Source: Escherichia phage SKA64. Taken from it: a stretch of 64,000 nt of DNA. Both the position numbers and the translations under genes were made by a program. The notes beneath the pieces are model-generated. The model worked only from the letters and a program-made list of their open reading frames with translations, did no database searches and had not been told where the DNA came from. This document shows, one piece after another, positions 9,873 to 43,619 of this stretch; position 1 is the first letter of the stretch, and each line of letters starts with the position of its first letter. The DNA lies in the sequence record OM362897.1; one strand, 5' to 3'.

Positions 9873-10217
9873 ATGAAAGTTTGGATAGATGATATGAGGA
9901 ACCCAGCCGACTACGGACAGGCAGATGCAATTTGGTTTAAAACGTCACAAGAAGCTATGGCGTTTCTCAATGATCCTGCTAAACTGTATCGAAGAGTAAC
10001 CGAGTGGTCCTTTGACAACGATTTGGGTGAAGATTCTGACCAAGATGGGTATGATGTTTTCCTGTGCTTGGAAGAACTTCTGGCGTTTGGTAAACCTTGC
10101 TTTGGTTCACCTACCATTTTCGTGCATACTTCTAATCCCGCCGCTGGGGATAAATTCATGCTTGCAAAAGAATCCATGCTGCGTTATGGTATTAAAATGA
10201 TTCGTGTGCACTATTAA
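9873..10217 (+). CDS. hypothetical protein
   Basis: 114-aa ORF in the operon-like array. Confidence 0.35.
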   Translation: MKVWIDDMRNPADYGQADAIWFKTSQEAMAFLNDPAKLYRRVTEWSFDNDLGEDSDQDGYDVFLCLEELLAFGKPCFGSPTIFVHTSNPAAGDKFMLAKESMLRYGIKMIRVHY

Positions 10218-10376
10218 GGAGAGAACATGCATCATTCGGTTTGGTCGGAACAAGAAGAGGACGAAGGTTATTTTATCTACCGAGAAGAAGAGGATTGGCC
10301 CGACACAAGTAATGATCTTTTACTTCCAGATACTAGTTTTATCGAGGATAACTTAAGAGAGGAGGATTAGGAAACA

Positions 10377-10733
10377 ATGAGTGGTATTGAAAACAATATT
10401 TGTTACCAACCTCTTACCTGGATGGGTGAGGGTCATTATGCGCAACGTGTTATCGTCTGTGCTGCAAATAAGTATATTTTGAATAATGGTGAAGAGTTAA
10501 TTATTCCTTGTGTTCGACATGCAAATCCTGTATTATCTGCACAATTGAACGTATTGAAAGAAGCAGGTGTTCTTGATAAAGTGCATTGTCTTCCAAACAA
10601 TCAAGGTTTTATTGATCAATACTACAATTGGTGGAGTCGTGAAGATGCATACATTATTGCAAAACACGCAGACCAGATTGACTACGAACGTAATGGTCAT
10701 GATCGTGACCTATTTAGCGAGGGATTATACTAA
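10377..10733 (+). CDS. hypothetical protein
   Basis: 118-aa ORF. Its stop overlaps the next gene's start. Confidence 0.35.
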   Translation: MSGIENNICYQPLTWMGEGHYAQRVIVCAANKYILNNGEELIIPCVRHANPVLSAQLNVLKEAGVLDKVHCLPNNQGFIDQYYNWWSREDAYIIAKHADQIDYERNGHDRDLFSEGLY

Positions 10734-11284
10734 TGTTTATTACAAGCGATTTGCATTTTATGCACAAACGTATACGAGAGTTTGCTCCTGAATATCGACC
10801 GTGGGAAGATATGGACCACATGACAGAAGCACTGATCGAAGCATGGAATAAATGCGCTACGAGTCCAGGTGTCAAGATGTGGCATTTGGGTGACTTCTGT
10901 TTCGGGACTGAAGAAGATACCCGTAAGATTGCTTCCCGCCTCCAAGGTGATATCACTTATTGTGTTGGGAACCATGATTACAGCAAACACCGAGAAGTGC
11001 TTGCAGAGTATGGAGAAGTGGTGTATTATGACGAAGTGAAATATCAGAAGCTGTTCTTCGTCTTAAGCCATTACCCTATGGCCTCCTGGAATAAGCAAGG
11101 TCGTGGATCAATCATGCTACACGGGCATTCCCACGGATCTTTCCCTGATGAAGCTTATGGTAAAATGTTAGATGTGGGTTGGGATGCACACGGAAAAATC
11201 TTACATTTTGATGAGATAATTTCTATGATGAGTAAACGAGATATCGTAACTGTAGACCATCACAAAATAATCAAAGGAGAGTAA
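10733..11284 (+). CDS. calcineurin-like metallophosphoesterase (candidate RNA 3'-phosphatase)
   Basis: Motifs SDLHF, GDF, GNHD, GHSH. Sits directly upstream of the RNA ligase and kinase genes. Confidence 0.6.
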   Translation: MFITSDLHFMHKRIREFAPEYRPWEDMDHMTEALIEAWNKCATSPGVKMWHLGDFCFGTEEDTRKIASRLQGDITYCVGNHDYSKHREVLAEYGEVVYYDEVKYQKLFFVLSHYPMASWNKQGRGSIMLHGHSHGSFPDEAYGKMLDVGWDAHGKILHFDEIISMMSKRDIVTVDHHKIIKGE

Positions 11285-11285
11285 T

Positions 11286-12218
11286 GTGGCTAAATTTAAT
11301 TGCGACGATTTAGTTGAAAAAGGTTTAGTTCATAAGAAAACATATAAAGAAGGAGAGTATTCTGGTCTATCTGTTCTTAAGTATAAGAACAAAGTTTTCT
11401 GGGATAACCTATGGAACATTGATTCTCGTCTTCTAGAATGTCGCGGAATCGTTGTTGACGCTGATGACAATGTTGTTATTTGGCCTTTCACTAAGATTTT
11501 TAATCGTTTTGAGAATGGCACAGATCTACCAGCGGATGAATTTGTAGATGTTGTTCGTAAAGTAAATGGTTTTATGGCCTCTGTAGGTGTATATAAAGGT
11601 CAACTTATCGTATCGACAACAGGAAGCCTTGAATCAGATTTTGCAAGTATTGCAAAGAATCGTATTGTTTCAGAGTGCGATGACATAGAACATTTCATCA
11701 AATGGACAGAGAGTGCAAAAGCAACTTTCCTTTTTGAAATCTGTGATCCTTCTGATCCGCATATTGTCGAAGAAGAACCAGGTGCATACTTAATTGGTGC
11801 CAGAATTCAAAATCCTGACGGGACAAGTTTTATGTTACCTGAAGGTGCTCTTGATGGAATTGCTTCTGTCACCAAATTTAAGCGTCCTGAAGTTCATCCA
11901 ATGGTTAAGTTTTCAGATGTTGTTGAAATGTCTAAACATTGTAAACACGAAGGGTTTGTAGTTCGTGAAACAAACTATCCGTTCAACTTACTTTTAAAAA
12001 TTAAATCACCACACTATCTTACTAAGAAGTTTCTTATGCGCGGTGGAGATAAAAAGTGGGATCTGATTTGGGATAATCCACAAAATGCCAAACAAATTGT
12101 TGACGAAGAATATTACGCTTTGTTAGAATGGATTCGAAATAACTTTACGAAGACTCAATGGGCTGCTTTAAATCAGCAAGAGCGACGTGAAAAAATCGAA
12201 AACTTCTTTGGAGGATAA
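11286..12218 (+). CDS. RNA ligase, T4 Rnl1-like
   Basis: LLECRGIVVDADDNVV, PFTKIFNRFEN and lysine motif VRKVNGF resemble T4 Rnl1 (from memory). GTG start. Confidence 0.6.
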   Translation: MAKFNCDDLVEKGLVHKKTYKEGEYSGLSVLKYKNKVFWDNLWNIDSRLLECRGIVVDADDNVVIWPFTKIFNRFENGTDLPADEFVDVVRKVNGFMASVGVYKGQLIVSTTGSLESDFASIAKNRIVSECDDIEHFIKWTESAKATFLFEICDPSDPHIVEEEPGAYLIGARIQNPDGTSFMLPEGALDGIASVTKFKRPEVHPMVKFSDVVEMSKHCKHEGFVVRETNYPFNLLLKIKSPHYLTKKFLMRGGDKKWDLIWDNPQNAKQIVDEEYYALLEWIRNNFTKTQWAALNQQERREKIENFFGG

Positions 12219-12623
12219 ATGAAACAACTTATCATTTTACGTGGCGTTTCAGGTGCTGGTAAATCTACGGTAGCAGAAATTATTTCTGAAGGTTATTGGC
12301 CTATCTGTGAGGCAGATCAATATCATTACACAGAAAGTGGTGTTTACGATTGGAAGCCAGAAAATGTAGGTAAAGCACACGCATGGTGTCAGAGTATTGT
12401 TCGTGATGCTATGGCATCTAATCTTAACAAGATTATTGTTTCTAACACTTCAACCACAGAGAAAGAACTTAAACCTTATTTAACTCTTGCTGAAGAGTTT
12501 GGTTATCAAGTTATCTCTTTAGTTGTTGAAAATAGGCACGGTAATGATTCAATTCACGAGGTTCCACAATATATTCGTGATCAGCAAGAGAAGCGTCTTC
12601 GTGGTTCACTTAAACTTCAATAA
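12219..12623 (+). CDS. P-loop polynucleotide kinase-like protein
   Basis: N-terminal Walker A ILRGVSGAGKST. Size and context match a 5'-kinase module of a Pnkp-type repair set. Confidence 0.55.
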   Translation: MKQLIILRGVSGAGKSTVAEIISEGYWPICEADQYHYTESGVYDWKPENVGKAHAWCQSIVRDAMASNLNKIIVSNTSTTEKELKPYLTLAEEFGYQVISLVVENRHGNDSIHEVPQYIRDQQEKRLRGSLKLQ

Positions 12624-12632
12624 GGAGAAATA

Positions 12633-12956
12633 ATGCAGATTTATACAGATGATCGTAAATATGAGACAATTTTAGATGAAGATACTGGACGAATTACCGT
12701 TCTCCGCCACGGTGAAGAGTGGCGTGATGAAACGGGAGATAATTACATCTTGTCTCTGATTCATCTTATTGAACAAATGCGCGATGATTACGCTGAACTC
12801 CATTATGAAAATGAGGCGAATAAAGTAAAATTTGAAAATGAGTTAGAAGAGAAAGAATCCGAAATGGTATATCTAAAAGAAGAGATCTCTCGTTTGGAGG
12901 AAGAGATTGATGCTCTTCAGGAAGAGATTTACGAACTCATTAAGGACGGATTATGA
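12633..12956 (+). CDS. hypothetical acidic coiled-coil protein
   Basis: 107-aa ORF rich in E/L heptad-like repeats. Confidence 0.35.
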   Translation: MQIYTDDRKYETILDEDTGRITVLRHGEEWRDETGDNYILSLIHLIEQMRDDYAELHYENEANKVKFENELEEKESEMVYLKEEISRLEEEIDALQEEIYELIKDGL

Positions 12957-13144
12957 AAAAAGATATCGTTGTTGTTGGTTGGCTGACTTGCCCTTGTGGT
13001 AGTAATGACATAACTGTAAACACAGAGGGTGATAAAAATTATTTATTCTACGGTGATAAAATCACTTGCAATACCTGCGGACGTGTTGGTATTATAGAAA
13101 CCGATGATTGCTGCGTTTTTGAATCTTGGGATGAAGATGAATGA
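12953..13144 (+). CDS. hypothetical zinc-ribbon protein
   Basis: 63-aa ORF with CPCG...CNTCG. Confidence 0.35.
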   Translation: MKKDIVVVGWLTCPCGSNDITVNTEGDKNYLFYGDKITCNTCGRVGIIETDDCCVFESWDEDE

Positions 13145-13349
13145 GTACTGCATTTTATGTTCGTAGTGGGGACGAGGATTTTCTAGCTACTTTTGATGAC
13201 GGTGATCTTGAAGATATGTATGAAGATATGTTTGACTATGCCAAAGGGCAAGGTTTCACAAGCATTGATTATATGTTGGCAACATCTACAACGTTACTCG
13301 ACGCAGATTTGGATGAAGTGTGTAACAGATTGAAAATTTCAGTTTTTAA

Positions 13350-14477
13350 ATGGGAGGACTAATGCAACAAACAAATCAAACGCTGTATGGTAAAGATTCA
13401 AAAGGAAAACTTAAACAGTGGACAGTGTATACAGATGGTGCAGTTGTTACTGTAGCTCATGGAAGGGTAGGTGGAAAAATCACAGAAAAATCTTATACAG
13501 CAGAAGCAAAAAACATTGGTCGTTCCAATGAAACAACACCGGAAGAACAAGCTGAACTTGAAGCTTTTGCCAAATGGACAAAACAGTTAAAGAATGGCTA
13601 TTATAAAACAAAAGAAGAAGCTGAAAACCATGTTCCTTCCACACCAATGAAATGCCAGGATTATAAAGATTATCCTGAAAGGGTTGTGTTCCCTGGTTAT
13701 GCACAATACAAACTGAACGGGTTACGTTCTATGATTAACATGAAAGGGGAGTGTTTATCAAAAGCTGGGGAAGTGTATAACCTGCCACCTCATTGGAAAG
13801 GTATTCCAAACTTTATTAGTGAAGTTGTTGGTCATCCTCTTGATGGTGAAGTGTTTGCTGGGTTAGGTGTCCTTAGTCTGCAACAAATTAACAGTGCCTG
13901 GAAGAAGCATAATGCAAATACACCTTTGCTGAATTATTACGTATATGATATTCCAGTTCCAGATCTACCGTTTGAAAAACGTGTTGATGTTCTTGCTGCT
14001 CTTAAGGCAGTAGTTGAAGATTATGGTCTTGACGAGCTTATTTGCGTAGTTCATACAGAGTATATTGAAAACCAAGAACAGTTTGATGCTTTCTATGAAA
14101 AAGCTTTACTTGAGAAAGCTGAAGGTGTAGTATATCGTAATGCTCACGGAGTTTACGAATTTGATAAACGTTCTTATGACGTTATTAAACGTAAGCCTCG
14201 CCACACCCTTGAAGTTAAAGTAACAAATTCAAAAAGTGATAAAAATGGTGATGGAGTGTTGACAGGTGAGATGGAAAATGGTAAAGTAGTCGAATTCTTA
14301 ATGCGTAAAGATGCTCATGAGACTATCAATTATCGTAAAGCAGAGAATGCTTCTACCTTGATTAATCAGTTCGTTGAAATAGAGTATGAAGAATTTTCAG
14401 ATGAAGGTATTCCAACAAAACCTGTTGGTGTTCGTATTCGAGAAATGATCCCAGGCACTTGGGAACCAGCAGAATAA
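13350..14477 (+). CDS. ATP-dependent DNA ligase (nucleotidyltransferase superfamily)
   Basis: Motif I-like KLNGLR, and a C-terminal GVVYRNAHGVYEFDKRSYDVIKRKP segment resembling T7-type ligase motif V (from memory). Confidence 0.55.
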   Translation: MGGLMQQTNQTLYGKDSKGKLKQWTVYTDGAVVTVAHGRVGGKITEKSYTAEAKNIGRSNETTPEEQAELEAFAKWTKQLKNGYYKTKEEAENHVPSTPMKCQDYKDYPERVVFPGYAQYKLNGLRSMINMKGECLSKAGEVYNLPPHWKGIPNFISEVVGHPLDGEVFAGLGVLSLQQINSAWKKHNANTPLLNYYVYDIPVPDLPFEKRVDVLAALKAVVEDYGLDELICVVHTEYIENQEQFDAFYEKALLEKAEGVVYRNAHGVYEFDKRSYDVIKRKPRHTLEVKVTNSKSDKNGDGVLTGEMENGKVVEFLMRKDAHETINYRKAENASTLINQFVEIEYEEFSDEGIPTKPVGVRIREMIPGTWEPAE

Positions 14478-14869
14478 GGAGGAAAAATGTTCTTAGCCAT
14501 TTTAATCGTTTTCAGTGTGCTTTCTTTTTATTGTATGAATGCTTCTGAAAACTTTCCTAAGAATTCAAAGAAAAGAACCATATGTGTTGCGATTGATTCA
14601 TGTATGTCTGGAGTTGGGTATGCGGTAGTTTCTTGTTTCTTAGCTTATCATTGTGCAAAATACCTGGAGGCATTTTTATGATAATTTTAGCAACAATTCT
14701 TATGATGTTGATAGCAATTGCTATTGTAATTCTGGCATCTTTTCCGGCGGATAAATGGTATTTCAATATTCCACGTATGCTTGTTTTCGGTTTCGCAGGA
14801 ATTTACATGGGTGAGACTGTAGTAAATATTAGCAACTTTCTAGAAAGCTATTTTAAATAAGGAGTTATA

Positions 14870-15595
14870 ATGATCGAGAATTTTTTTAAAGATATTAAAT
14901 TCGATATTGAATTTTTCAAAAATGCAGCAAAGCACGTAATTGATTGGAATGCCAAAGCACGAGGTGGTGAACAACCTGAATTCACTCAAGAGCTATTTAT
15001 GTCCCAAATCGGGTTCGTTCGTGAAGAGCTTAAAGAGTATGAAACAGCCGCGAAAGTAAACGATCATGTAGAACTCTTGGATGCAGCAGCGGATATTTTT
15101 GTAGTATCCAGTTATCTTACTTACATGTTCTTTGGTGAAGAACATACGATGAATTTCTTGGACTATGCTGTAGGCGATGTTTTTACTCCAACTGTGTATA
15201 CTGATTTTGATGCTTTGGAACAAACATTTACAGAGCCAGTTCAAATGGCACTAATGGCTGCTGGTATTATGCGTATGTCTCGTGACACTCTAATCCGTTC
15301 AAAATATCCAGAAAAGAAAGTTATTAAAGAGGTATTGAAAAGTAATGATTCCAAGTATCCAACTAAACAACAGTTGCTGAAAACTTGGAAAACTTCGGAT
15401 ATCGATTCAGCCATTGCACAAGAATGCGCTGCAATTGAAGAACGAAATGCCAATCGTCCAGAAGGGGCATACACTGGTGTTCATGCTGTTTATAATGAAA
15501 AACAGAAAGTATATGTGTTCTTTGATGATAAAGGTAAGATCATGAAACCATCGACCTTTGTCAAACCTAATATTGCAGGTATTATTAACAAGTAA
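14870..15595 (+). CDS. putative MazG-like nucleotide pyrophosphohydrolase
   Basis: Acidic pattern REELKEYE...LLDAAADIF in a helical context. Weak assignment. Confidence 0.3.
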   Translation: MIENFFKDIKFDIEFFKNAAKHVIDWNAKARGGEQPEFTQELFMSQIGFVREELKEYETAAKVNDHVELLDAAADIFVVSSYLTYMFFGEEHTMNFLDYAVGDVFTPTVYTDFDALEQTFTEPVQMALMAAGIMRMSRDTLIRSKYPEKKVIKEVLKSNDSKYPTKQQLLKTWKTSDIDSAIAQECAAIEERNANRPEGAYTGVHAVYNEKQKVYVFFDDKGKIMKPSTFVKPNIAGIINK

Positions 15596-34877: not shown

Positions 34878-35468
34878 ATGATCCGAGGAGTAGTTATGCG
34901 TTCAACTTTCACTGGCAAAATAAATGCTGGTTTGATTTTTACAGCAGTAAGCATTCTTAGCAAAAAGTTTAAAGTTGTTAACTTACCTGTGTGTGTCGAT
35001 TTCGATCATGTTTTTGATCCTTCGAACCCCACTCGTTGCATAGTAAGGAGTAATGTTGAAAACCCAACAGAAAATCTTTTTTATGTAACAAAACCATCTC
35101 AAAGCATACTTAACCAGGTTGAGGCGAAATTGATACCTAACGGTAAATATTACTCCTTTTTACCTTGTAAGTCGGTTGAAGTAGAGAATAGCAATACTTT
35201 CGCTAATAACTTGTCTGTATTCGTTTTCTTTGTTTCACAGGAAGACGAAACAGATGAAATGGTAGCAACAGTGAGATCACTTTATGACTCTTTAGGGGTT
35301 GTTTATAGTCAACAAGTGTGCGAAAATAATAAAGCCTGTGTAGATTTCATTATCAACGGTATTTGTGTTTGTAGAGTAGAATCTTTTTGGCTGCACGATA
35401 CATATGTGACTGTAGCAGAGGTTATATCTGAACCAAGATTTAGTCATGCGGTTTCGTTAATAATTTGA
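34878..35468 (+). CDS. hypothetical protein
   Basis: 196-aa ORF. Confidence 0.35.
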   Translation: MIRGVVMRSTFTGKINAGLIFTAVSILSKKFKVVNLPVCVDFDHVFDPSNPTRCIVRSNVENPTENLFYVTKPSQSILNQVEAKLIPNGKYYSFLPCKSVEVENSNTFANNLSVFVFFVSQEDETDEMVATVRSLYDSLGVVYSQQVCENNKACVDFIINGICVCRVESFWLHDTYVTVAEVISEPRFSHAVSLII

Positions 35469-39268: not shown

Positions 39269-40210
39269 ATGGTGTTAATTGGTAGCCGTGCATTACAAAT
39301 TCATGCTATGGACATGGGAAAAGACTTGTATCGCCCTTGTGTAGATTTAGATTACCTGTGTACAGAACAAGAGTGGGAAGAATTATCAAAAATGTTCTCT
39401 CAAGACGAGTTTGTTGAACTTGTAGAACGTAAAGGGAGCAAAGGCCATGTCAAAATGATAGCTGGTGCACATTTGGAATACGATATTGCTTCTCAAGGAG
39501 ATAGCACAGAAGCTTTGATTAGTTATTGTGAAGATTCTGATGATGTTCGTCGAACTTACGCTGGACATGTTGTTGCTCCTTTAGATGTGCTCTACCTTCT
39601 TAAAATGAGTCATCGTTTTAAAAAGGATAGTCCTCACTTCTTTAAAACTATGAAAGATATTCATTTCATGCGGTCACTGGGCGCAAAGATCCCAGAAAAT
39701 CTTAAGAGTATTTATGAGTTGCGTGAGAAAGAAACATACACTTACTCTCATCCGAACTTAAACGTAAAAAGTAAAGAGTTCTTTAAAGGTGACGAGGTTC
39801 CGTATGTTTATGATCATGATTCTATCCATGAAGCAATCGCGTTAATGGATGCTCCAGCATATAAATCTTATATGAAAGATGGAAGTGAAGTTATGACCAG
39901 CAAAGAAAAGTTTTTTGCTCAACCAAAACATGTGCGGCTGTTAGGTGTTTATGAAGAAGCGTGTGTTTTGGCTTTGGAACGTTCACAAATTCCTTTCGGT
40001 GAAGAGATCGGAGGTCCAACCCCTAAGCAAAGTTTTATAATGGCTTTATCTAAAGTCTGCACATCCATCACTAGTGGTTGGTTTAGGGAATATGCTTGGG
40101 AAAACTTTTATGTTGTTATTAAGCTATATGAAAACATGGGCGAAAACGACTATGTTGAACGTTTTAAAGCTAATCAACATGTAGTAAAGCCTTTTGAAGG
40201 AGGTTATTAA
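39269..40210 (+). CDS. hypothetical protein
   Basis: 313-aa ORF. Confidence 0.4.
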   Translation: MVLIGSRALQIHAMDMGKDLYRPCVDLDYLCTEQEWEELSKMFSQDEFVELVERKGSKGHVKMIAGAHLEYDIASQGDSTEALISYCEDSDDVRRTYAGHVVAPLDVLYLLKMSHRFKKDSPHFFKTMKDIHFMRSLGAKIPENLKSIYELREKETYTYSHPNLNVKSKEFFKGDEVPYVYDHDSIHEAIALMDAPAYKSYMKDGSEVMTSKEKFFAQPKHVRLLGVYEEACVLALERSQIPFGEEIGGPTPKQSFIMALSKVCTSITSGWFREYAWENFYVVIKLYENMGENDYVERFKANQHVVKPFEGGY

Positions 40211-41283: not shown

Positions 41284-41933
41284 TGTCAAATTCAAAACCA
41301 GTAGTTGCTTATCAAGTAGATCGTAATGATGGTGAAGGAAGTGTTGTTATTTTCAGTACACACGGTCTTGAGGCTCGTCGAAAAGGTGCATATCGTTTAG
41401 AATGTGAGTTTGAAGACTGCACAAGCCACCGTGTGAAACAATTCGATCAATATGCTGATAAAGGCTTCGTCCCTATCAAAGCCTTACTGGAAGATGGTTG
41501 GTGGGTATATTCTGCTTTTGATGGTGTTAGACTCGACGAACCTGTAGGAGGTCTTGAGGCAGATTTTGACGAATGCGAAGATGGCTTGTATATTGAAGAG
41601 GATCTTGTATTTTCCCTTGACGAGAAAAGCGTGTGGAAGAACTGGGAAGAAATGGAACGTCACGCGCATTTTATCAACAATGCTTTGATTCGTAAAGCTT
41701 GGTTTATGGAGGCGGTGAAGGTAGCGTATCCGCAGTTCACCTTTACAGAGGTTTGGGGCGGTCCACACCACATCACCCATACAGCATTTTTCGACTTCCC
41801 TGGTTCACGTTACAAAGGTAATATAATGTGGGACTGGGATGAGAATAAAGTACCATCTGTTAAAGACTTTCGTTGTTATGTTTGCCAAGGCGATCAAGAA
41901 GCCCTTGACAAATACCTACAAAGTCTGGTATAG
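41283..41933 (+). CDS. hypothetical protein
   Basis: 216-aa ORF. Confidence 0.35.
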   Translation: MSNSKPVVAYQVDRNDGEGSVVIFSTHGLEARRKGAYRLECEFEDCTSHRVKQFDQYADKGFVPIKALLEDGWWVYSAFDGVRLDEPVGGLEADFDECEDGLYIEEDLVFSLDEKSVWKNWEEMERHAHFINNALIRKAWFMEAVKVAYPQFTFTEVWGGPHHITHTAFFDFPGSRYKGNIMWDWDENKVPSVKDFRCYVCQGDQEALDKYLQSLV

Positions 41934-41949
41934 TGCCAGCATCTGAACA

Positions 41950-41979
41950 AAGCCTCCTGTTTCAGGGGGCTTTTCTTTT
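41950..41979 (+). terminator. rho-independent terminator
   Basis: AGCCTCCTG-TTTC-AGGGGGCT followed by a T-rich run. Confidence 0.55.
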
Positions 41980-42483
41980 ATGGGAGGAAATATGTTTCAA
42001 GTAGAAATTCATGTGCACAACAGTTGTTCAAATTGCGAGACTTGTGGTTACAATAGTTCAACCATGATCACTATTAGCGGAGACTTAGGAGATGCCAAGT
42101 TTGGCGAAGTCGCAAGCTGCTTCAGCGGAGAGGATGCAGATTGGCATGATATTGCACACTGGTTGGTGAGCAAACTAAAAGAAAAAGAGAAACCATTTCC
42201 TACTCTGCTTGATCGTTCTCTTGTGGAAGATGCAGGTAAAGCATATGCAGACTATGCGTATGCAGACGGGAAATATTTGGAAGATGATAAGGCTAACCAT
42301 TTGCTTTATGTTTACTATGAAGCTGAATCTGCCTACGATAATTATTACAGCATGTCCAACATTCTACGTTTGTTTGCGGAGTTTGATATTTACTTTGAAG
42401 TGAGTTATTCTCAAGACGAAGTGTACGATTTGGATGACGAAGATTATGATGATTATGAGGAGGAAGAATGCCAAGACGATTAA
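41980..42483 (+). CDS. hypothetical acidic protein with CxxC pair
   Basis: 167-aa ORF, CSNCETCG near the N-terminus, very acidic C-terminus. Confidence 0.35.
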   Translation: MGGNMFQVEIHVHNSCSNCETCGYNSSTMITISGDLGDAKFGEVASCFSGEDADWHDIAHWLVSKLKEKEKPFPTLLDRSLVEDAGKAYADYAYADGKYLEDDKANHLLYVYYEAESAYDNYYSMSNILRLFAEFDIYFEVSYSQDEVYDLDDEDYDDYEEEECQDD

Positions 42484-43268
42484 TAGTGATCAGCGGCGCG
42501 GGTCTAAGCGCCGATAGCGGTGTACGTACTTTCCGCACTGACACAGAAAGTGGCAAAGCTTTGTGGGATGAATACGACCTTTCTGAAGTGTGCGACATTT
42601 TCAACTTCCGTGCTGGATACCAACAAGAACAGTGTGTTCCTGGGGCTGTTGGCGGATTAGATGCAGAGGGATACAACCTCTACCGTAAAACTCATGACTT
42701 CTACAATAAACGTCGCGTAGAGATGGATAGTGTAACTCCTAACGCTGCGCATTACCAGATCGCGGAATGGTTCCAAGAGTACGGCTGTGATCGTGTTATC
42801 AACATCACGACAAACGTAGATGATCTTCTGGAACAAGCAGGTGTTGTTCATGAAGATGTTCTACATGTTCACGGCTTCCTGCCTGAAGTGATCGTAGACA
42901 ATAGAATCATCAAAGATGTTGGCTATGCTGCTATCGATGTGGATGATTACAAGTATGTGAAGCCCAATGTAGTGTTCTTTGGGGAGACTGCCCCATTGTA
43001 TAACGATATGTACCACATCTTAGACGGCTTGACGGCTCAAGATATGGTGATTGTAGTGGGTTGCTCTAATCAAGTTATCAATTTTAACTGGGAGCTTTTT
43101 CCTGCTCTTAACATCGGAACAAAAATGGTTGTAGTTAACCCTGGAGTTAATTACGAAGAAACACTTCTCTATGAAGATCGTGGAGTTTTTGTTTACCGAG
43201 AAAAAGCTGCAACAGCCTTCAGCAATGAAGGTTTCATTAAAATGGTCGAAGACCACTTAAACAAATAA
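42468..43268 (+). CDS. Sir2-like (sirtuin family) NAD-dependent protein
   Basis: ISGAGLSADSGVRTFR near the N-terminus resembles the sirtuin NAD-binding signature. Confidence 0.55.
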   Translation: MPRRLIVISGAGLSADSGVRTFRTDTESGKALWDEYDLSEVCDIFNFRAGYQQEQCVPGAVGGLDAEGYNLYRKTHDFYNKRRVEMDSVTPNAAHYQIAEWFQEYGCDRVINITTNVDDLLEQAGVVHEDVLHVHGFLPEVIVDNRIIKDVGYAAIDVDDYKYVKPNVVFFGETAPLYNDMYHILDGLTAQDMVIVVGCSNQVINFNWELFPALNIGTKMVVVNPGVNYEETLLYEDRGVFVYREKAATAFSNEGFIKMVEDHLNK

Positions 43269-43277
43269 ACCACTCAA

Positions 43278-43300
43278 GGGGCTTCGGCCCCTTTCTTATT
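43278..43300 (+). terminator. rho-independent terminator
   Basis: GGGGC-TTCG-GCCCC followed by TTTCTTATT. Confidence 0.55.
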
Positions 43301-43311
43301 AGGAGAATAAA

Positions 43312-43584
43312 ATGACTGAAGAAATCCGTGATTACTACCTTGCACATTACGTTTACTACTTTGCCAATGCTACACAAAAAGGGGAAGGTAATCTTTACTT
43401 GGCAACAGGGCATGGAACAGGCGTTAGGAAATCAAATATTGATAACGCCTTGGCTCAAGTGGCTGCTGGGCTAGAAGATAAACTTCAAACACCTGTAGTT
43501 GTAGTGATGCAAAACATAAGTTACCTAGCAAGCTGTACTGAAACCGAATTTAACGCGTCTGAAACGCAATCTAACGAAGAATAA
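43312..43584 (+). CDS. hypothetical protein (last gene of the plus-strand block)
   Basis: 90-aa ORF followed by a strong terminator. Confidence 0.35.
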   Translation: MTEEIRDYYLAHYVYYFANATQKGEGNLYLATGHGTGVRKSNIDNALAQVAAGLEDKLQTPVVVVMQNISYLASCTETEFNASETQSNEE

Positions 43585-43587
43585 AAC

Positions 43588-43619
43588 AAAGGCACCCAAG
43601 TGGGTGCCTTTTCTATTTT
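43588..43619 (+). terminator. rho-independent terminator at the convergence point
   Basis: AAAGGCACCC-AAGT-GGGTGCCTTT followed by TCTATTTT. Strand switch occurs here. Confidence 0.6.

Follow-up and report, generated by a model that had tools for sequence, protein, structure and literature searches.

The open reading frame at positions 42468–43268 (plus strand) of the window, the whole 64,000-nucleotide stretch of DNA analyzed here, which is that of a phAPEC8-like E. coli myophage, encodes a real sirtuin, probably an active NAD-using enzyme of the Sir2 type, that belongs to a phage-only branch of the family. Profile and structure matches place the product in a zinc-less ‘TTN’ clade of CobB/SIRT5-like class III sirtuins. 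It is predicted to be catalytically competent, and lysine deacylation is the activity that we favor, although tentatively and with somewhat less than even confidence. As a finding in this window the gene is ordinary. Deposited proteins identical to it carry the name ‘Sir2/NAD-dependent deacetylase’ in public phage records, a point missed by the initial annotation, and the family is known, with annotations in roughly one thousand genomes of phages. We agree with the earlier statement that sequence by itself does not settle the function.

The boundaries of the gene were exactly as first given, with an ATG start and 266 codons followed by a stop codon in the ORF list. A Shine-Dalgarno sequence, GAGGAGG, can be read 4 nt before the ATG (42457..42463, plus strand), within the 3' end of an upstream ORF (41980..42483, plus strand) that overlaps the sirtuin gene by 16 nt, making translational coupling likely. 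The upstream ORF encodes a very acidic 167-residue protein (pI 4.05) with a conserved CETCG...ASC motif and a profile match to phrog_9509; in related phages this protein always abuts Sir2, and it is a possible partner of the sirtuin. The sirtuin had been described as standing at the end of the plus-strand block, and it does lie near that end, but the true last gene of the block is a further plus-strand ORF of 90 codons (43312..43584; profile match to phrog_15991, gp198 in phAPEC8). The hairpin search found a terminator-like hairpin directly after the Sir2 stop codon (43276..43293, plus strand) and a bidirectional one where the plus and minus blocks converge (43588..43611), and the GC skew flips at the latter, at the strand switch. 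The GC content of the sirtuin region is mildly raised (0.44–0.45 vs. 0.36–0.41). Recent horizontal acquisition was considered on this basis and rejected, as a rise of this size is uninformative.

The initial annotation had assigned the protein to the Sir2-like NAD-dependent family and had proposed an HMM search as a check. The assignment was borne out by profile, sequence, and fold matches: (i) the Pfam SIR2 profile PF02146 scored 72.3 bits against a cutoff of 24 (E=6.5e-20), far past chance, and was the sole Pfam match of what is a single-domain protein; (ii) phrog_2162 ‘Sir2’ matched over the full length (E=1.1e-101), residues 2–266 corresponding to profile positions 10–271 of 277; and (iii) E. 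coli CobB structures were matched by sequence with E=2e-15. The AlphaFold model (pLDDT 94.7, pTM 0.91) displays the Rossmann fold and small domain of solved sirtuins, and the 50 best Foldseek matches were all sirtuins. The best of these was CobB (E=6e-17, TM 0.73/0.85), with Sir2-Af1, SIRT5, Sir2-Af2, and Hst2 among the other best matches; like CobB, all of these are deacylases.

Alignment of the protein with its relatives located the expected functional elements, all on the plus strand. The N-terminal peptide ISGAGLSADSGVRTFR (residues 8–23), which had first drawn attention to the gene, is indeed the sirtuin NAD-binding signature. Within it, the motif GAGLSADSGVRTFR (residues 10–23; 42495..42536) contains the invariant residues G10, A11, G12, S14, S17, F22, and R23. 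Cys42 (42591..42593), which is invariant in close homologues, aligns with the acyl-pocket residue A76 of E. coli CobB, and Y79-N-K-R82 (42702..42713) forms the class III YxxR anion-binding pair (Y92/R95 in CobB). The TQNxD motif is present as T114-T115-N116-V117-D118 (42807..42821) with Thr replacing Gln, and H133-V-H135-G136 (42864..42875) places His135 at the position of the catalytic H147 of CobB. The substrate-binding ‘FGE’ loop is V168-V-F-F171-G-E173 (42969..42986; V187...F190 in CobB).

These positions were compared between 35 zinc-less sequences and 76 zinc-containing relatives. The catalytic His, one of the residues proposed for checking, is conserved in every sequence of both groups (35/35 and 76/76); neither a loss of catalytic residues nor a lack of sirtuin matches, the two outcomes named beforehand as counting against the assignment, was found. 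N116 is present in all 35 zinc-less sequences and D118 in 34 of them. On the alignment, the predicted NAD-binding and nicotinamide-cleavage apparatus (GAGxS...FR, N116, D118, and His135) is complete. The acceptor side is also conserved: C42, Y79, R82, V117, V168, F171, and V203 are the same residues in both groups, and the acyl-pocket determinants of CobB given in PDB titles (A76, Y92, I131, and V187) align with C42, Y79, V117, and V168. The only clean discriminators were position 115 (Gln in 76/76 zinc-containing relatives but Thr in the query and in each of the 35 representatives of the zinc-less group), residue 199, and the missing cysteines.

The zinc-binding Cys residues had been proposed for the same check, and here the result was different: all four ligands are absent in the query and across the whole clade. 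Residues 137–164 (42876..42959, plus strand), which in the alignment and the model stand in for the zinc ribbon, include no Cys. The stretch from H135 to K165 is free of Cys in the query and in each of 34 close homologues, and 35 of 45 representatives with T115 have 0–1 Cys in the zinc-ribbon segment. AlphaFold models residues 137–164 confidently as a β-hairpin (136–143/147–150) and a short helix. The loss of the zinc ligands makes the phage protein an atypical sirtuin. Sirtuins normally depend on the zinc module for their activity, and we know of no characterized deacylase sirtuin that is devoid of it.

The clade is found in T5-like, rV5/Mydo-like, phAPEC8-like, Vibrio, and jumbo phages, with phrog_2162-type sirtuins in 978 phage records and 310 viral contigs, and it is almost absent from cellular genomes. 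A pattern-limited scan of 185,579 species genomes returned one convincing match, and this came from a T4-like phage contig within a MAG. The sirtuin of iGC_PHA_EC001 is 100% identical to the query and phAPEC8 gp197 99%; the identity is 53–60% for T5-like phages, 58% for Mydo, about 50% for rV5-like phages, and about 35% for Vibrio phages. Phage families whose sirtuins share no more than 35–60% identity all keep the catalytic residues unchanged. We considered a hypervariable arms-race gene and ruled it out, as in comparisons with other Stephanstirmvirinae the identity of Sir2 (68–78%) exceeds that of most neighboring genes (25–60%). Close alleles of the sirtuin are mosaic. The missing zinc module has been seen in silico for Vibrio phages (PMC5107563), and the clade was singled out as a distinct viral one by Iyer et al. 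2022 (PMC9503650).

If the enzyme is a lysine deacylase, as we favor, it would bind NAD+, and the acyl oxygen of a modified lysine would attack C1' of the nicotinamide ribose with release of nicotinamide. His135 would then activate a ribose hydroxyl, and the intermediate would resolve to free lysine and O-acyl-ADP-ribose. The Y79/R82 pair, which presumably corresponds to Y102/R105 of SIRT5, suggests a taste for acidic acyl groups of the succinyl/malonyl type, possibly together with acetyl. Its targets would be proteins of the host or the phage, early or midway through infection. A speculative class of targets is the lysine-dependent ligases, for DNA and for RNA, that neighbor the sirtuin in other phages. 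The short zinc-free β-hairpin would take the place of the zinc ribbon. Judging from the contacts that sirtuins make with NAD, the Gln-to-Thr change at residue 115 and the change of GTS to G(C/S/A)S probably retune the hold on the NAD ribose and diphosphate, not the choice of acceptor.

The invariant catalytic and NAD-binding residues, the acyl pocket shared with zinc-containing relatives, and the good conservation of the gene relative to its neighbors speak for deacylation, as does the fact that the best structural matches are all deacylases. The genes for nicotinamide recycling are consistent with real NAD+ turnover: NAMPT lies directly upstream of the sirtuin in two lineages (L088 and L069) and within about 2–6 kb of it in jumbo phages, L066, and Mydo. 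Neither NAMPT nor PRPP synthetase was found in the window, although a sister genus carries both. Against deacylation, besides the missing zinc module, Thr replaces the Gln of TQNxD in none of the 76 zinc-containing relatives, and the CobB equivalog models of NCBIfam all scored below cutoff, the best (NF001753) far under it at 98 vs. 243 bits. In addition, the neighborhoods in several independent phage lineages favor RNA-end processing and not protein modification. E. coli already has its own CobB, so it is not obvious what a phage gains from carrying a sirtuin. A literature search found no experimental paper, biochemical or genetic, on phage sirtuins, nor did a search for the SIRT5 Q140L structure, made in order to read the Gln-to-Thr change, find any.

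It is possible, although we consider it doubtful, that the sirtuin is instead an RNA-end repair enzyme analogous to KptA/Tpt1. An internal or terminal RNA 2'-phosphate would attack C1'' of NAD+ in place of the acyl oxygen, and the enzyme would work with phage cREC, phosphoesterase, kinase, and RNA ligase to repair tRNAs cut by anticodon nucleases of the host. The broader claim that the zinc-less ‘TTN’ sirtuins are NAD+-dependent processors of nucleic-acid ends, by which RNA 2' or terminal phosphates are removed or ADP-ribosylated, and not protein deacylases, has in our estimate about one chance in four of being correct. Loss of the zinc module, which could open the cleft for a bulkier substrate, would together with the Gln-to-Thr change admit a phosphate nucleophile, and the Y79/R82 anion site could hold the phosphate. 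A KptA/Tpt1-like role was predicted from gene neighborhoods by Iyer et al. 2022 (PMC9503650), and the two-step chemistry of Tpt1, in which NAD+ is cleaved, nicotinamide leaves, and the ribose 2''-OH then attacks (PMC6333775, PMC6097658), parallels the sirtuin mechanism.

We re-verified the neighborhoods independently in rV5-like, Mydo, T5-like, L065, and jumbo phages. The gene order is RNA ligase, cREC, and then Sir2 in the rV5-like phage, and RNA ligase, cREC, kinase, one small ORF, and then Sir2 in Mydo. HAD_SAK_2 lies 0–2.4 kb from the sirtuin in T5-like phages and L065, while cREC, 2H, and Nudix genes lie less than 1 kb from it in jumbo phages. A MenT-like nucleotidyltransferase also recurs near the sirtuin, which again fits RNA-end repair; a DUF7275 neighbor gave no match when compared with the PDB by sequence and called for a predicted structure. 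Taken together, an RNA-end repair partner (cREC, Rnl1, kinase, HAD_SAK, or 2H) lies within 5 kb of the sirtuin in 10 of 25 zinc-less lineages. The window itself carries, beside a 10-tRNA array, an RNA-end repair module (9873..12623) of cREC (9873–10217), a metallophosphoesterase (10733–11284), an Rnl1-type RNA ligase (11286–12218), and a P-loop polynucleotide-kinase-like gene (12219–12623), all on the plus strand, which we infer to be a candidate functional partner of the sirtuin.

Several observations weigh against this role. The module, which adjoins the sirtuin in rV5/Mydo-type phages, is 30 kb upstream of it here, and the lineage of the window has no RNA-end repair partner within 5 kb. DNA ligase adjoins the sirtuin as often as the RNA-end repair partners do, so the linkage may merely mirror a shared block of nucleic-acid metabolism. 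The Rnl1-type ligase does not follow the distribution of the sirtuin: in Salmonella phages the ligase occurs in only 16 records vs. 289 with the sirtuin; T5-like phages were not among the ligase matches listed and have no detectable homologue of the RNA ligase of the window; and many phages of Pseudomonas and Streptomyces, neither of which ranks among the ten most frequent sirtuin-bearing groups, have the ligase. The linkage to RNA repair is real in some lineages, but it is not universal. The protein is also strongly acidic (pI 4.6, with a clade median of about 5, and net charge −19), which would be unusual in an RNA-binding enzyme, its acyl-lysine pocket is the same as in zinc-containing relatives, and what cREC and HAD_SAK do has itself only been predicted.

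It is rather unlikely that the protein is an ADP-ribosyltransferase or NAD+ glycohydrolase for host takeover or counter-defense, which would ADP-ribosylate a protein or nucleic acid of the host, or act on a NAD-derived molecule, within an anti-defense cluster. In favor of this, the two residues on which NAD+ cleavage depends, N116 and His135, are both retained, and some sirtuins are robust ADP-ribosyltransferases (PMC8120803). In the jumbo phage PHA46 the sirtuin has on one side a 2H protein resembling Acb1 (Pfam Acb1, E=1.7e-16) and on the other a Nudix protein resembling Nudt16, with NAMPT and NMNAT-Nudix upstream, so that the region looks like an island of anti-defense and NAD restoration; the adjacent NAMPT genes of L088 and L069 point the same way. 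Interference with NAD-based defense, which the initial annotation had raised, is weakly suggested by such neighborhoods in other phages. On the other hand, burning NAD+ would oppose the adjoining NAD-restoring genes, and the conserved pocket argues for a defined acyl-like acceptor. To our knowledge, no sirtuin degrades immune signaling nucleotides. The suggestion that the protein might be of the defense-effector type of SIR2 could be ruled out: there was no match to SIR2_2 and no fused sensor domain, the sole PADLOC match was marginal (39 residues, E=3e-4), no defense-type SIR2 appeared among the 50 best structural matches, and a scan of the neighbors of the sirtuin found no HerA, SLOG, TIR, or Argonaute. 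SirTM, which is defined by a change of the catalytic His to Gln and an adjacent macrodomain gene (PMC8120803), was ruled out as well, as His135 is kept and there was no macrodomain among the neighbors scanned.

A degenerate, non-catalytic sirtuin, for example a binder or sensor of NAD+ or ADP-ribose inactivated by the absence of the zinc ligands and of the module that activity normally needs, is highly improbable, as the catalytic residues are invariant across divergent phage families, the zinc-free segment is modeled confidently as an ordered hairpin, and the clade is widespread and well conserved.

The choice between these activities matters for the roughly one thousand sequenced phages that carry the sirtuin, among them phages of the T5-like, rV5-like, and phAPEC8-like groups that serve in therapy and biocontrol. 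As a deacylase, the enzyme would let the phage rewrite the acyl-lysine proteome of the host and would be a natural example of a sirtuin that functions in the absence of zinc. As a Tpt1 analogue, it would represent a new chemistry for the sirtuin fold and a new step in phage tRNA repair, directed against anticodon nucleases of the host. The question is now narrower: the acceptor pocket does not differ from that of zinc-containing relatives, and what sets the phage proteins apart is confined to T115, residue 199, and the zinc module.

Among known systems, Tpt1/KptA offers only a possible functional analogy: its fold and family are unrelated to the phage sirtuin, and no Tpt1/KptA profile matched the query, for which the Pfam search gave SIR2 alone. 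The defense SIR2 NADases (ThsA, DSR1/2, SIR2-HerA, and SIR2-APAZ) also do without the zinc module and cleave NAD+ with an Asn/His pair, but they form another subfamily, a highly divergent one, whose members have sensors fused or coupled to them, whereas the phage sirtuin is a stand-alone canonical-type domain of 266 residues. The phrog_2162 phage Sir2-like proteins (T5.102 of T5, those of rV5 and Mydo, phAPEC8 gp197, and the Vibrio KVP40/phiSt2-type proteins) belong to the same family, and only the gene context differs, the repair genes lying apart here and a lineage-specific acidic protein upstream. Human SIRT5, a desuccinylase/demalonylase, shares the class III fold and the Tyr/Arg anion-binding pair, but it is zinc-dependent and has the canonical TQNID. 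The best match in both sequence and structure is the class III NAD+-dependent lysine deacylase CobB of E. coli (PDB 1S5P, 6RXJ-S; 26% identity). Unlike CobB, the phage sirtuin lacks the zinc cysteines, has Thr for the Gln of TQNxD and GCS for GTS, and carries an extra variable insert at about residues 48–71; common to both are GAGxS...FR, the N/D pair, the catalytic His, the FGE loop, YxxR, and the acyl-pocket positions.

The open reading frame at 42468..43268 (+) was found where the initial annotation had placed a Sir2-like NAD-dependent protein, and the N-terminal peptide quoted there corresponds to residues 8-23 of the product. The frame opens with an ATG, has 266 codons, is preceded by a ribosome-binding site (GAGGAGG) 4 nt upstream of the start and is followed, after its stop codon, by a terminator-like hairpin (43276-43293). 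It had been described as ending the plus-strand block; it does lie near that end but is penultimate, the last plus-strand gene being a 90-aa ORF (43312..43584, +; phrog_15991). A bidirectional terminator (43588-43611), at which the GC skew changes sign, stands at the start of the convergent minus-strand block. The sirtuin assignment is secure: the profile search gave 72.3 bits against Pfam SIR2 (gathering score 24; E=6.5e-20), the phage family phrog_2162 'Sir2' matched end to end (E=1.1e-101), and the best PDB sequence matches were E. coli CobB structures (E=2e-15).

The region is 96% identical at the DNA level to Escherichia phage phAPEC8 (Phapecoctavirus, Stephanstirmvirinae), the counterpart gp197 of which is labelled 'Sir2 (NAD-dependent deacetylase)', and a deposited protein of phage iGC_PHA_EC001 is 100% identical to Sir2. 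Homologues are encoded in 978 phage records, with identities of 53-60% in T5-like, 58% in Mydo-like, approximately 50% in rV5-like, approximately 35% in Vibrio schizoT4-like and 32-41% in jumbo phages. The gene is therefore an already annotated member of a known phage sirtuin family, and an ordinary one in this window. The alleles of four close relatives (P0009, P0012, P0027 and P0029) are mosaic when compared with it: in some, the C-terminal ~55 aa are 100% identical but aa 31-75 and 121-165 only 43-70%, and others are identical at aa 46-75 and ~70% elsewhere, a pattern that indicates recombination within the gene.

The conserved residues and the predicted structure show a sirtuin of the canonical type in which the NAD-cleavage apparatus is complete, and the cautious interpretation given in the initial annotation is supported. 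The residues invariant in 34 close homologues are G10, A11, G12, S14, S17, F22, R23, C42, F78, Y79, R82, R83, N116, V117, D118, H135, G136, F171, E173, G198, S200 and N224. Two features had been singled out for checking. The catalytic His is present, as His135 aligns with that of CobB; the zinc-binding cysteines are not, since in the aligned stretch from the catalytic His to the FGE loop no member of the clade has a Cys, and the four-cysteine zinc ribbon is thus absent from Sir2 and its close homologues. Furthermore, the canonical TQNxD motif reads TTNVD (Q to T at T115). Of 150 sequences, each representing a 50%-identity cluster, 45 have Thr at this position, and 35 of these had 0-1 Cys in the zinc segment and carry G(S/C/A)S; at least four Cys were found in 70 of the 82 with Gln, and all 76 with Gln plus at least three Cys retained GTS. 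T115 was the only column that cleanly separated the zinc-less from the zinc-containing group. Loss of the zinc site and the Gln-to-Thr change thus go together. The positions altered in the TQNxD and GTS motifs presumably contact the NAD ribose and diphosphate, as in sirtuin-NAD complexes.

The acceptor pocket, on the other hand, is the same as in the zinc-containing relatives. A76, Y92, I131 and V187, the acyl-pocket residues of CobB named in PDB entries, align with C42, Y79, V117 and V168, and these four together with R82, F171 and V203 are the same residues in both groups. The confident AlphaFold model (pLDDT 94.7, pTM 0.91) is soft only in the cofactor-binding loop (aa 21-40) and has an ordered beta-hairpin in place of the zinc ribbon. 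Foldseek returned CobB first (E=6e-17, TM 0.73/0.85), followed by Sir2-Af1, SIRT5, Sir2-Af2, Hst2 and SIRT2.

Sharing 16 nt with the start of Sir2 is the gene for a 167-aa, very acidic protein (41980-42483, +; pI 4.05, tail EEEECQDD) in which a cysteine motif, CETCG...ASC, is conserved. The two genes adjoin in each of the three Stephanstirmvirinae lineages compared, and the acidic protein may be a DNA mimic or may bind zinc as a partner of the zinc-less sirtuin. Within 41905-41973 (+) lies a sigma-70-like promoter close to consensus (TTGACA-18-TATAGT, 11/12, with TG), and just downstream of it a strong terminator-like hairpin (41949-41973) directly precedes this gene pair. Farther upstream are a 216-aa protein, a DNA methyltransferase (phrog_757), a small protein and a DUF7277-DUF7275 protein (39269-40210, +), and a calcineurin-type phosphoesterase is found ~6 kb upstream of Sir2. 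In phAPEC8-like phages and Vibrio phage ValKK3 the DUF7277-DUF7275 protein is again encoded 1.4-3 kb away from the sirtuin. Its invariant residues are G5-S6...D26-x-D28...E70 and a His-rich set (H115, H123, H161, H183-D184, H187), and its AlphaFold model (pLDDT 91.3) matched best the tRNA-modifying nucleotidyltransferase toxin MenT1 (Foldseek E=2.6e-4) and more weakly CCA-adding enzyme, ANT and Lnu. The 196-aa protein at 34878-35468 (+), called 'histidyl tRNA synthetase' via phrog_4806, is probably misannotated, because it matches nothing in Pfam and is much too small to be a HisRS.

As to mechanism, we tentatively favour lysine deacylation: an acyl-lysine acceptor, probably with an acidic acyl group, is what the conserved pocket and the Tyr/Arg pair of class III favour. 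A plain CobB-like role is disfavoured, since the zinc module is missing, the Gln-to-Thr change is invariant, the profile scores against curated CobB models are below cutoff, and RNA-repair neighbours recur. The adjacency of NAMPT in several lineages fits any model with real nicotinamide release.

The RNA-repair neighbours, which recur across other phage lineages, bear on the idea that Sir2 acts on RNA phosphates in the manner of KptA/Tpt1, which we consider somewhat unlikely. The Tpt1 reaction, in which a phosphate oxygen attacks NAD+ C1'' and ribose O2'' then attacks the phosphate (PMC6333775, PMC6097658), parallels sirtuin chemistry and thereby makes the proposal mechanistically credible. 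On the basis of gene neighbourhoods, most viral sirtuins have been argued to belong to a distinct clade with such a role in RNA repair (Iyer et al. 2022; PMC9503650), and we examined the neighbourhoods anew. In rV5-like phage Bas59 the order is RNA ligase, cREC (Pfam PF20274), Sir2, with polynucleotide kinase and phosphoesterase alongside; in Mydo it is phosphoesterase, two small ORFs, RNA ligase, cREC, kinase, a small ORF, Sir2 and DNA ligase, while NAMPT and PRPP synthetase are ~5 kb away. T5-like phages and one further locus, L065, have a HAD_SAK_2 phosphatase gene at a distance of 0-2.4 kb. At least one RNA-repair-type partner was found within 5 kb in 10 of 25 zinc-less lineages (75%-identity clusters).

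The window itself has a complete RNA-end repair/ligation block (9873-15595, +), comprising cREC (9873-10217), a metallophosphoesterase (10733-11284), an Rnl1-type RNA ligase (11286-12218) and a P-loop kinase (12219-12623), all on the plus strand, followed by an ATP-dependent DNA ligase and a MazG-like pyrophosphatase; a 10-tRNA array (Met x2, Ile, Pro, Gln, Gly, Thr, Asn, Ser, Arg; 3579-5501, -) lies a few kb away. The phAPEC8 annotation labels several genes of this block 'hypothetical'. The block is, however, 30 kb upstream of Sir2, which weakens the RNA-phosphate reading, as do the acidic surface charge of Sir2 (pI 4.6, net charge -19; clade median pI ~5) and the loose association at the genome level. 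The Rnl1-type ligase occurs in 731 phage records, only 16 of them from Salmonella phages versus 289 with the sirtuin, and in no T5-like phage among the matches listed; it is frequent among phages of Pseudomonas and Streptomyces, both outside the ten most frequent sirtuin-carrying groups. The two genes are not co-distributed, and DNA ligase and RNA ligase adjoin the sirtuin equally often. Several 'Campylobacter phage' records of ~135-150 kb, B15, C2 and A12a (MG065650, MG065655, MG065666), have RNA ligases 97.7% (B15) or ~47-48% (C2, A12a; as in rV5) identical to that of the window, and may be mislabelled or derive from mixed isolates.

Among the lineages examined for RNA-repair neighbours, the jumbo phages have cREC, a 2H protein and a Nudt16-like Nudix on the flanks of the sirtuin, and NAMPT and NMNAT-Nudix upstream. 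In the Salmonella jumbo phage PHA46 (L007, 554-7667), the 'RNA ligase' just upstream of the sirtuin matches Pfam Acb1, an anti-CBASS phosphodiesterase (E=1.7e-16), and NAMPT, NMNAT-Nudix and Nudt16-like Nudix genes are near this 2H gene; the neighbourhood may thus also represent an island of anti-defence and NAD-restoration genes. Such an island would accord with an ADP-ribosyltransferase, NADase or counter-defence enzyme, a role that we regard as improbable for Sir2, and a non-catalytic binder is highly improbable given the complete NAD-cleavage apparatus.

The viral collection yielded 310 confirmed loci of the zinc-less clade. When 185,579 bacterial and archaeal genomes, each representing a species, were scanned with the guidance of two short patterns, there was one convincing relative only (42% identity), L088, on contig JBOFGC010000083.1 of the MAG 'Bacilli bacterium'. 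This contig, with NAMPT, Sir2, endonuclease VII, NrdD and NrdG in that order, is a T4-like phage contig binned into the MAG, and locus L069 has the same arrangement, judged by ORF sizes and NAMPT position. As far as this pattern-dependent scan goes, the clade therefore looks phage-restricted. We found no experimental characterisation of zinc-less phage sirtuins in the literature searched, and the biochemistry of the whole clade merits an enzymologist's attention.

The lack of zinc was noted in silico earlier for Vibrio phage sirtuins (PMC5107563), and both the zinc-less clade and the RNA-repair prediction were already published in 2022 (PMC9503650). Sir2 belongs to the SIR2 superfamily and to the phage family phrog_2162; by the curated cutoffs it falls outside the CobB equivalogs. 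Profile and fold searches led us to reject a defence-associated SIR2, as no defence-type SIR2 was among the Foldseek top 50. SirTM, marked by a Gln where other sirtuins have the catalytic His and by a macrodomain partner (PMC8120803), was likewise rejected, since Sir2 keeps His135. Any relation to Tpt1/KptA would be one of functional analogy only.
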